A DNA stretch of 33,904 nt from a virus (taxonomy: Duplodnaviria; Heunggongvirae; Uroviricota; Caudoviricetes). The position numbers and the translations under genes are program-made. The notes beneath the pieces are model-generated. The model was given only the letters and a program-made list of their open reading frames with translations. It did not search any database and was not told the DNA's origin. The first letter of the stretch is position 1, and every line of letters begins with the position of its first letter. The stretch lies in IMG/VR virus record IMGVR_UViG_2541047875_000010, positions 1-33,904 of that record; one strand, written 5' to 3'. Below are positions 6,240 through 6,740 of this stretch, piece after piece.

Positions 6240-6740
6240 ATGTTAAATCGTTTGATTCTGTCGGTAGCACTGATAATACCGATAACATCCAATGCTTCTG
6301 ATGCTTTGAACCAGCCGAGCAGTAGTCTAAATGATGGCGTTGAGACTTTTTTTATTTCCTGCTTTGATATGCCTCAGGAAACAACTACTGATATGGACGC
6401 TTGTCAGAGAGTTCAGTTAGCTCAGGTTAGTTGGGTTAAGAATAAGTATTCGCTGGCCGCCCTGAATCGTTTGAAACAAGACAACAAGGATGATCCACAG
6501 CGTCTGCAGGAATTAACTGCTTCTTTTAACGCGGAAAGTGAAGCTTGGACAGAATTAATTGAGAAAGCGTCAAAGTCCGTCCAGGTTGATTATGCAGGAG
6601 GAACTATAGCTGGCACTGCAGTTGCATCACGTCAAATTGGTCTTCTGGAATTACAATCCCACGATATCTGGGAGCACTGGCTACGATTCGAGGACTCAAC
6701 TCCTCCTCTTTTGCCAGAACCAAAGTTCAAATCTGAGTAA
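6240..6740 (+). CDS. periplasmic DUF1311 / LprI-like (lysozyme-inhibitor family) protein
   Basis: ATG 6240 with GGAG 8 nt upstream; N-terminal signal peptide MLNRLILSVALIIPITSNASDA; Cys/Trp/GGT pattern (C..C...AEAW...GGTIAG...IWEHW) resembling DUF1311. Track ORF 5577-6740 is an unsupported upstream extension. Confidence 0.5.
   Translation: MLNRLILSVALIIPITSNASDALNQPSSSLNDGVETFFISCFDMPQETTTDMDACQRVQLAQVSWVKNKYSLAALNRLKQDNKDDPQRLQELTASFNAESEAWTELIEKASKSVQVDYAGGTIAGTAVASRQIGLLELQSHDIWEHWLRFEDSTPPLLPEPKFKSE

Follow-up and report, generated by a model that had tools for sequence, protein, structure and literature searches.

What is the small gene that stands beside the repressor gene of this prophage, and what might its product do for the lysogen that carries it? 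The stretch of DNA analyzed here (the window) comprises 33,904 nucleotides (nt), positions 1 to 33,904 of IMG/VR virus record IMGVR_UViG_2541047875_000010, and represents a lambdoid prophage from Escherichia coli, similar in type to SfV and CPS-53. The gene occupies positions 6240 to 6740, and an initial annotation, made from the sequence alone, had described it as an independently oriented gene with its own ribosome-binding site (RBS) between the cI repressor gene and the early-left operon. That description is accurate: the gene lies on the plus strand behind the RBS GGGAG, flanked by a yfdP-like gene on one side and cI on the other. The features on which the first part of the argument depends are as follows.

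6240–6740, plus strand: coding sequence (CDS) of 166 amino acids (aa), taken from the list of open reading frames (ORFs) and from reading the sequence; ATG at 6240, TAA at 6738–6740, and a second TAA directly after it
6229–6233, plus strand: Shine-Dalgarno sequence GGGAG, 6 nt 5' of the ATG at 6240, from reading the sequence
6766–6793, plus strand: intrinsic terminator with a 9-bp G+C-rich stem (five G-C pairs), a 4-nt loop and a T-run
6198–6748, no strand: exchangeable cargo segment; homology to phage vB_EcoS-569R4 ends at 6197 and restarts at 6749
6956–7582, minus strand: cI-type repressor gene (HTH_3 and Peptidase_S24 domains), convergent with the gene at 6240–6740

An exchangeable cargo gene beside the repressor

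The ORF at 6240–6740 is a real, selected and conserved gene. An identical CDS is present in RefSeq as WP_021549917.1 under the label "hypothetical protein", the full-length gene was found in 142 of 5426 complete E. coli genomes (~2.6%), and a 601-bp query around it matched E. coli KC-Dl-1 and five further complete genomes at 100% identity. We counted 219 contigs with exactly this protein and at least 1000 with a 170-aa allele; all sources label both as hypothetical. Homologues with 55 to 97% identity were found in E. coli, E. albertii, Klebsiella and Raoultella. Between diverged alleles, the pairwise ratio of nonsynonymous to synonymous substitutions (dN/dS, Nei-Gojobori) was 0.09 to 0.21 at a dS of ~1 to 1.9, values indicative of strong purifying selection on the gene.

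The window allele and the common 170-aa allele differ in where translation starts. The common allele begins at the ATG equivalent to 6227 (MGAIYVKR...) and uses the RBS AGAGGGGA (6212–6219), whereas the 166-aa window allele begins at the ATG at 6240 (MLNR...) behind GGGAG. A 1-nt indel near 6247 (AAATCG in the window, AAACG in the common allele) toggles between the two starts, and by eye the ATG at 6227 in the window starts translation in a different frame that closes after only ~24 codons. A workable signal peptide is predicted from either start. The G+C content drops from ~0.54 at 5700–6150 to 0.41–0.43 within the gene, which is thus lower than its left flank.

Comparison with related phages shows that the gene is one of several alternative occupants of its position. 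The flanks of phage vB_EcoS-569R4 are 95 to 97% identical to the window up to the breakpoints at 6197 and 6749, and against SfV the corresponding breakpoints are 6157 and 6797. In vB_EcoS-569R4 the slot (locus L037, 2006–2687) holds a gene for an unrelated cytoplasmic protein (144 aa, no signal peptide) together with a convergent 67-aa gene, and in SfV (locus L038, 2167–2463) it holds orf33, a 98-aa cargo that is likewise unrelated; a PADLOC search of the vB_EcoS-569R4 genes and of SfV orf33 returned no match. Since related phages carry other cargo at the same breakpoints, the gene is a moron, as the initial annotation had proposed: it is exchangeable moron cargo with a terminator, sited just outside the immunity module of lambdoid prophages, similar to SfV and CPS-53, in E. 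coli and Klebsiella. The slot itself is a hotspot for cargo in general; the 601-bp query has matches in ~945 E. coli genomes, 142 of them with the cargo described here, which encodes a DUF1311 protein (see below). The terminator hairpin at 6766–6793 was the strongest terminator-like site in a scan of 5700–7800, and it lies inside the flank that is common to phages with other cargo, so that it serves the alternative cargo too.

Alleles of the gene also move between otherwise similar prophages. Alleles of 97%, 73% and 64% identity were found within flanking DNA of 96% identity or more, and at one locus (L050) the same cI (99%) stands beside the 64% allele; this mixture of alleles between near-identical flanks indicates that the cargo has been exchanged by recombination. 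The position is nevertheless fixed with respect to the repressor. The gene directly adjoins a convergent cI-type repressor gene in all 13 IMG/VR loci, and the same adjacent, convergent placement is seen in E. coli and Klebsiella prophages (L001–L003). The neighboring repressors represent at least four immunity types, with identities to the window cI of 32%, 38%, 42%, 87% and 99 to 100%. Among 35%-identical relatives, two Carnimonas-related loci (L005 and L018) have an S24 repressor within ~0.8 kb, the former next to a lysis cassette.

Outside of prophages, solitary chromosomal copies are found in Erwiniaceae, Raoultella, Pantoea, Enterobacter, Sodalis and Rouxiella, and the window cI, yfdP and yfdQ proteins had no match around them; on a reading of crude translations, some of these copies lie near integrase fragments or umuDC-like genes. 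The chromosomal copy of Erwiniaceae bacterium CAU 1747 (L006, 5001–5378) stops after ~125 codons though tblastn aligns it over its full length, and is probably a frameshifted pseudogene; by eye, an integrase-like fragment lies just 5' of it.

A 24-nt inverted repeat brackets the cargo exactly at the recombination breakpoints.

6191–6214, no strand: left arm of the inverted repeat; its outer 13 nt, AATCTGGATGACT, can pair without mismatch with 6743–6755
6732–6755, no strand: right arm, which overlaps the stop codons and has AGTCATCCAGATT as its outer 13 nt

Klebsiella alleles with an ORF dS of >1 have both arms conserved. Provided that both are transcribed, the two arms pair as the closing helix when the mRNA fold is predicted, in the minimum-free-energy as well as the centroid structure. 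The alternative cargo of vB_EcoS-569R4 is also bracketed, by an inverted AATCTGG...CCAGATT and by the pair TCCCCAACAAC / GTTGATGGGGA. The flanking repeat could act as a 5'-3' clamp on the mRNA or as a site of cassette exchange.

Family, predicted fold and export

The assignment of the protein to the DUF1311/LprI family (PF07007) is solid, and it was reached through homologue and profile searches. The direct Pfam match scored 17.4 bits (E value of 0.006; residues 46–133 on profile positions 8–96 of 106), below the gathering threshold of 22 bits, and it is because this direct match is sub-threshold that the protein carries "hypothetical" annotations. All 13 close homologues matched PF07007 (best E value of 9.6e-6). 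When 1.84 billion representatives were searched exhaustively with a profile, 242 relatives were recovered, and each of the 60 that were aligned matched the family, with a best E value of 7.9e-20. The profile built from these 60 sequences in turn matched the DUF1311 crystal structure 3GI7 (PP0307 of Pseudomonas putida) with an E value of 1.2e-6. In PHROGs the protein falls into phrog_7681, listed there as being of unknown function; an NCBIfam search with the protein gave noise only, a PDB sequence search with the close-homologue profile gave chance matches only, tblastn against the INPHARED phage genomes found no homologue, and the BFVD viral structures contained no structural relative. What is new here is that a widespread "hypothetical" group (PHROG 7681) is assigned to DUF1311; the DUF1311 fold itself was already known.

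An AlphaFold model computed from 13 sequences had a predicted local distance difference test (pLDDT) score of 58.9 and was unusable; it was replaced by a model from the 60-sequence alignment. The latter predicts a three-helix DUF1311 bundle (helices at residues 49–81, 86–117 and 124–148) together with a small β-sheet formed by an N-terminal hairpin (27–39) and a C-terminal strand (160–165). The family call of the initial annotation therefore holds up, with homology established via relatives where the direct PF07007 match is sub-threshold, and with the expected three-helix fold in the model. Like DUF1311 proteins of the 3GI7 type, the product appears to be a secreted three-helix bundle with a C-x13-C motif at the start of helix 1, an xAW motif in helix 2, a GG[TS] loop and an Arg in helix 3; in the window subfamily these correspond to C41 and C55, W103, G120-G121-T122 and R131.

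The protein also departs from the family in several respects, beyond its low direct score and the fact that it is borne by a prophage. The Cys/Trp pattern that the initial annotation had ascribed to it is present in part: C41, C55 and W103 align, whereas the canonical cysteines 3 and 4 are missing, being replaced by Ala or Ser in the window subfamily and retained as Cys in the wider clade, which has the consensus C-x13-C ... QxAWxxYRxxxC ... GTIR ... C.I.LT..RTH..W..WLTY.DSTPP.LPEP. Because cysteines 3 and 4 have been lost jointly, the alignment suggests that they formed one disulfide and that C41 and C55 form the other. The subfamily has gained a conserved N-terminal segment, P26..S28.L30..GVETF.I.C, which is modeled as the extra β-hairpin at 27–39. 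Its most conserved part is a near-invariant C-terminal tail, HDIWEHWLRFEDSTPPLLPEPKFKS (HDIWxxWLRFxDSTPPxLPEP), which lies beyond the matched part of the Pfam model and whose last residues, 160–165, are predicted to form the strand beside the hairpin. In the more general form W..WL.[FY].DSTPP.LPEP, this tail is also present in the wider four-cysteine clade. A two-cysteine subfamily with an added, predicted β-sheet and a conserved C-terminal clasp is likewise new.

The product is predicted, on heuristic grounds, to be a soluble periplasmic protein exported by the Sec pathway.

Residues ~1–19 of the protein: predicted Sec-type signal peptide, by heuristic reading

The N terminus can be divided into n, h and c regions (MLNR, LILSVALIIPI and TSNA|S), with a mean Kyte-Doolittle value of 3.0 over the 11 residues of the h region. 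In the homologue alignment, S17 at position -3 is invariant and A19 at position -1 is nearly so. Low pLDDT values are limited to residues 1–20 in the 60-sequence model, and the N terminus contains no lipobox cysteine. These observations agree with the Sec-type signal peptide reported in the initial annotation. The predicted mature protein has ~147 aa and is acidic, with 23 D/E residues to 13 K/R.

Position relative to the immunity region

Whether the gene belongs to the immunity region bears on when it might be expressed. The sites and genes concerned, including the leftward operator and promoter (OL and PL) and the rightward operator (OR), are listed here.

6902–6874, minus strand: PL-like promoter (TTGCCA, 17-nt spacer, TAGATT), overlapping the OL-like operator
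6876–6891: OL-like operator TCTAACTTAACTTAGT, related to the OR palindromes
7604–7619: OR palindrome ACTAAGTAATCTTAGT, between cI and cro
7653–7668: OR palindrome TCTAATAAAACTTAGT, between cI and cro
7680–7880, plus strand: cro
5403–5768, minus strand: yfdP-like gene; no annotated intact gene precedes it in the early-left operon
4513–5337, minus strand: DUF2303/yfdQ-like gene
3848–4396, minus strand: HD-domain yfdR-like gene
6128–6205, plus strand: conserved upstream block, in which TAATCTG is invariant in nine of nine loci, non-prophage copies included

Prophages that differ in their repressors are homologous as far as ~6860, and the immunity module therefore starts there. The operator pattern has only three matches in the whole window, a count that is not above chance at three mismatches; it is by its location that the site at 6874–6902 is likely to be OL/PL. 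Given that this OL/PL-like site lies between cI and the gene, and that the two genes are on opposite strands, the gene at 6240–6740 would be antisense to the early-left transcript; it is thus placed outside the immunity region, downstream of a PL-like promoter and antisense to the transcripts that this promoter is presumed to make. A weak hairpin at 6906–6937 may terminate cI.

This placement differs from that proposed in the initial annotation, which put the gene in the slot that holds the exclusion genes rexAB in lambda. The lambda genes rexAB are found between cI and OL, share their transcript with cI, and thus sit inside the immunity region on the cI strand; the window gene, in contrast, is on the strand opposite to cI, with both the OL/PL-like site at 6874–6902 and the boundary at ~6860 in between. 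A lambda rexAB-type arrangement is ruled out by the opposite strand and the intervening OL/PL-like site. In other respects the gene resembles phage morons and the conversion or exclusion genes found near immunity regions: it is an accessory gene with its own terminator, is present or absent between near-identical phages, and has a lower G+C content than its left flank. The logic of a moron beside an immunity region was already known; what is new is that the gene keeps its place next to cI, antisense to a PL-like promoter.

The conserved block of ~80 nt at 6128–6205 is a candidate promoter or 5' untranslated region. Readings of this block as a σE-like promoter or as an RcsB box were considered by eye and dropped as unsupported, and Rfam gave no significant match in or around the gene.

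Two further parts of the window contain known or possible RNA elements. The region at 5770–6197 (~430 bp) is conserved in SfV, vB_EcoS-569R4 and E. coli prophages without an intact ORF, and RefSeq treats it as a frameshifted pseudogene. Within it, 5962–5908 on the minus strand gave a full-length but sub-threshold match to DicF (18.9 bits, where the gathering score is 48); the matched stretch contains UUGGCGGUACCAGUUU and a 10-bp stem, which by eye is followed by a U-run, and a 25-nt inverted repeat lies at 5814–5838 and 5878–5902. The region may encode a DicF-like small RNA (sRNA) or a terminator in the early-left transcript. Further downstream, Rfam identified an STnc100 sRNA at 13963–14165 (129 bits) and a tRNA gene at 14269–14341 (70 bits), both between the Q antiterminator gene (12808–13191) and the lysis genes. 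The lysis cassette at 14637–16605 is of the P21 type, with a pinholin gene (PF04971), a DUF1327 gene, a lysozyme gene of glycoside hydrolase family 24 (GH24; PF00959, 15614–16147) and Rz; the N terminus of the lysozyme is rich in Gly and Ala and resembles the signal anchor of a signal-arrest-release (SAR) endolysin.

What the product may bind

The explanation that we favor, tentatively and at somewhat less than even confidence, is that the product is an immunity-like binder of a peptidoglycan hydrolase that acts in the periplasm, carried by the prophage as lysogenic-conversion cargo. The protein would bind stoichiometrically to a hydrolase that reaches the periplasm of the lysogen and neutralize it; the most plausible target would be a muramidase-type toxin of a competitor, delivered as a type VI secretion system (T6SS) effector or as a bacteriocin, or the lysozyme of an incoming phage, and the outcome would be a lysogenic-conversion or an exclusion function. 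Lysogenic conversion, which the initial annotation had suggested, is plausible. As the gene is antisense to the PL-like promoter, the two transcription events would be expected to collide, and expression may thus be biased toward lysogeny: its expression would fall mainly in the period when PL is repressed by cI, and convergent transcription from PL would shut it down after induction.

This preference follows from published cases in which LprI-type proteins provide immunity to cell-wall toxins. Etsi4 neutralizes Etse4 in E. coli O157:H7 (PMC12981562). In Pantoea, LprI-domain genes are found downstream of lysozyme-like effectors and also persist as orphan immunity genes (PMC9796082), and a plasmid with the pse15-psi15 pair, a pesticin-domain effector and an LprI-domain protein, conferred on Pantoea a T6SS1-dependent killing by which it outcompeted the parental strain (bioRxiv 10.64898/2026.08.01.741415). 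In our search, Etsi4 itself also matched LprI PF07007 below threshold, at 18.7 bits. Among the targets listed in the initial annotation (host lysozyme, superinfecting phage endolysins and T6SS muramidase effectors), the T6SS muramidase effectors have the best published precedent. Like the window protein, proteins of the Etsi4/Psi15 type are small periplasmic DUF1311-like proteins of Enterobacterales of which orphan copies have been described; their genes lie beside effectors or in T6SS islands, whereas the window gene lies beside a phage repressor with no effector near it.

The contexts of more distant relatives are mixed. In six contig look-ups, one relative (L052) was found within an array of small genes that includes an SMI1_KNR4 gene of immunity type, a second (L053) had a T6SS ImpA_N gene ~3 kb away, and a third (L055) directly followed a Peptidase_C39_2-TPR gene; beyond these three, nothing telling was seen. 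In a more specific version of the favored explanation, the product would be an orphan immunity protein, with its expression tied to lysogeny by the antisense placement relative to PL, against GH24/lysozyme-type muramidases, namely T6SS effectors, pesticin-like bacteriocins and the tail lysozymes of superinfecting phages; narrowed in this way, the proposal is doubtful. T4 Spackle, a small helical periplasmic inhibitor of the phage tail GH24 lysozyme, offers a functional analogy, of which the window protein would be the equivalent in a temperate phage; Spackle is absent among the listed fold matches of the window protein.

Several results weigh against an immunity-like role. In the window, the neighbors of the gene are phage genes, with no hydrolase or effector among them that could be its cognate partner, and a Pfam census of 114 neighbors of 30 homologous loci contained no T6SS, lysozyme or peptidoglycan-hydrolase family. 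Similarity between the window protein and Etsi4 is marginal (hhalign probability of 27%), and PADLOC returned no match for the protein. A σ70 consensus scan found no plus-strand site 5' of the gene, and the best score of a σ70 position-weight-matrix scan was 6.4, close to the median of 5.8 for random windows and thus not above background. In Sphingomonadales and other Alphaproteobacteria (L022–L035), four-cysteine relatives lie in conserved housekeeping synteny with genes for electron transfer flavoprotein, coenzyme A ligase and inositol monophosphatase; they look like core periplasmic proteins, which points to an endogenous role of the wider clade. These relatives also carry the DSTPPxLPEP tail. 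In addition, neither tblastn of the window neighbors against 35 loci nor crude gene calls revealed a conserved operon partner. In the literature, we found no paper citing WP_000500990 or WP_021549917, and none describing a prophage-encoded DUF1311/LprI gene.

The same Alphaproteobacterial synteny also speaks for the alternative that survives best, namely that the product behaves like ScwA, binding or stabilizing periplasmic peptidoglycan hydrolases of the host, such as lytic transglycosylases, and so tuning envelope homeostasis in the lysogen. ScwA (Salmonella SL1344_0490) is a periplasmic, DsbA-dependent protein with an LprI domain as its only domain; it controls the levels of MltD and other hydrolases and has no lysozyme phenotype (PMC7933661). 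A YecT/DUF1311 gene was needed for β-lactam tolerance in a transposon-sequencing study of P. aeruginosa (PMC7038268), and most homologues of the window gene are solitary genes. The likeness to ScwA is that both are periplasmic LprI-domain proteins, horizontally acquired in the case of ScwA as well, and that ScwA is linked to peptidoglycan hydrolases (PMC7933661). The differences are that ScwA is chromosomal, regulates endogenous MltD, has 275 aa and four cysteines, and carries the domain only at its C terminus; the domain is all that the two have in common, without specific similarity between them. The presence or absence of the moron and the swapping of its alleles (97%, 73% and 64%) also fit a function in conflict better than housekeeping, and we consider a ScwA-like role unlikely.

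A role unrelated to envelope protection is more unlikely still. The product would then be a conserved exported protein that binds a small ligand or another envelope protein, or one that acts only in the lytic cycle. Such a role would be in keeping with the failure of the σ70 scans to find a promoter, and most DUF1311 proteins have no known function; strong purifying selection, the near-invariant C-terminal motif and a position that is conserved across genera and immunity types are all at odds with it.

The label "lysozyme inhibitor", with which the initial annotation had introduced the protein, does not carry over beyond the name of the Pfam family. This name comes from Mycobacterium tuberculosis LprI, which carries an MliC domain too, and MliC is the domain type generally credited with lysozyme inhibition; the authors of the ScwA study state that no experiment supports inhibition of lysozyme by the LprI domain, and ScwA, the one protein assayed that has the LprI domain by itself, gave no lysozyme phenotype (PMC7933661). 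Neither Pfam nor fold searches matched an Ivy, MliC/PliC or PliG domain or fold in the window protein. A classical inhibitor would bind host c-, g- or i-type lysozyme in the periplasm and shield the lysogen in animals, and, apart from the family name, the predicted periplasmic location and the occurrence of the gene in many human and animal isolates of E. coli, several of them named as extraintestinal or uropathogenic, would suit this role. E. coli already has Ivy, MliC and PliG, and on balance we regard a further inhibitor of this kind as improbable.

Equally improbable is a safety catch in which the periplasmic DUF1311 protein would mop up the prophage's own Sec-exported SAR GH24 endolysin as it leaks prematurely in lysogens: the P21-type cassette does combine a PF04971 holin and Rz with a PF00959 phage lysozyme that has a SAR-like N terminus, and lysozyme-like or pesticin-type domains are found in the toxins that LprI-domain immunity proteins are known to accompany, the pesticin toxin domain having a T4-lysozyme-like fold, but lambdoid phages are mosaic, no SAR-endolysin system is known to require such an inhibitor, and chromosomal copies exist outside of prophages.

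The gene is common: ~2.6% of complete E. coli genomes have it, as do prophages of Klebsiella. It is labeled hypothetical all the same. Were it to have no phenotype of the kind favored here, it would be one more accessory periplasmic protein. If it is immunity-like, it would make the binding partner of the DUF1311 domain accessible to a tractable assay with a single gene; and if the favored explanation is true, temperate phages would be spreading resistance to interbacterial cell-wall weapons, with the alleles swapped in a slot beside cI.

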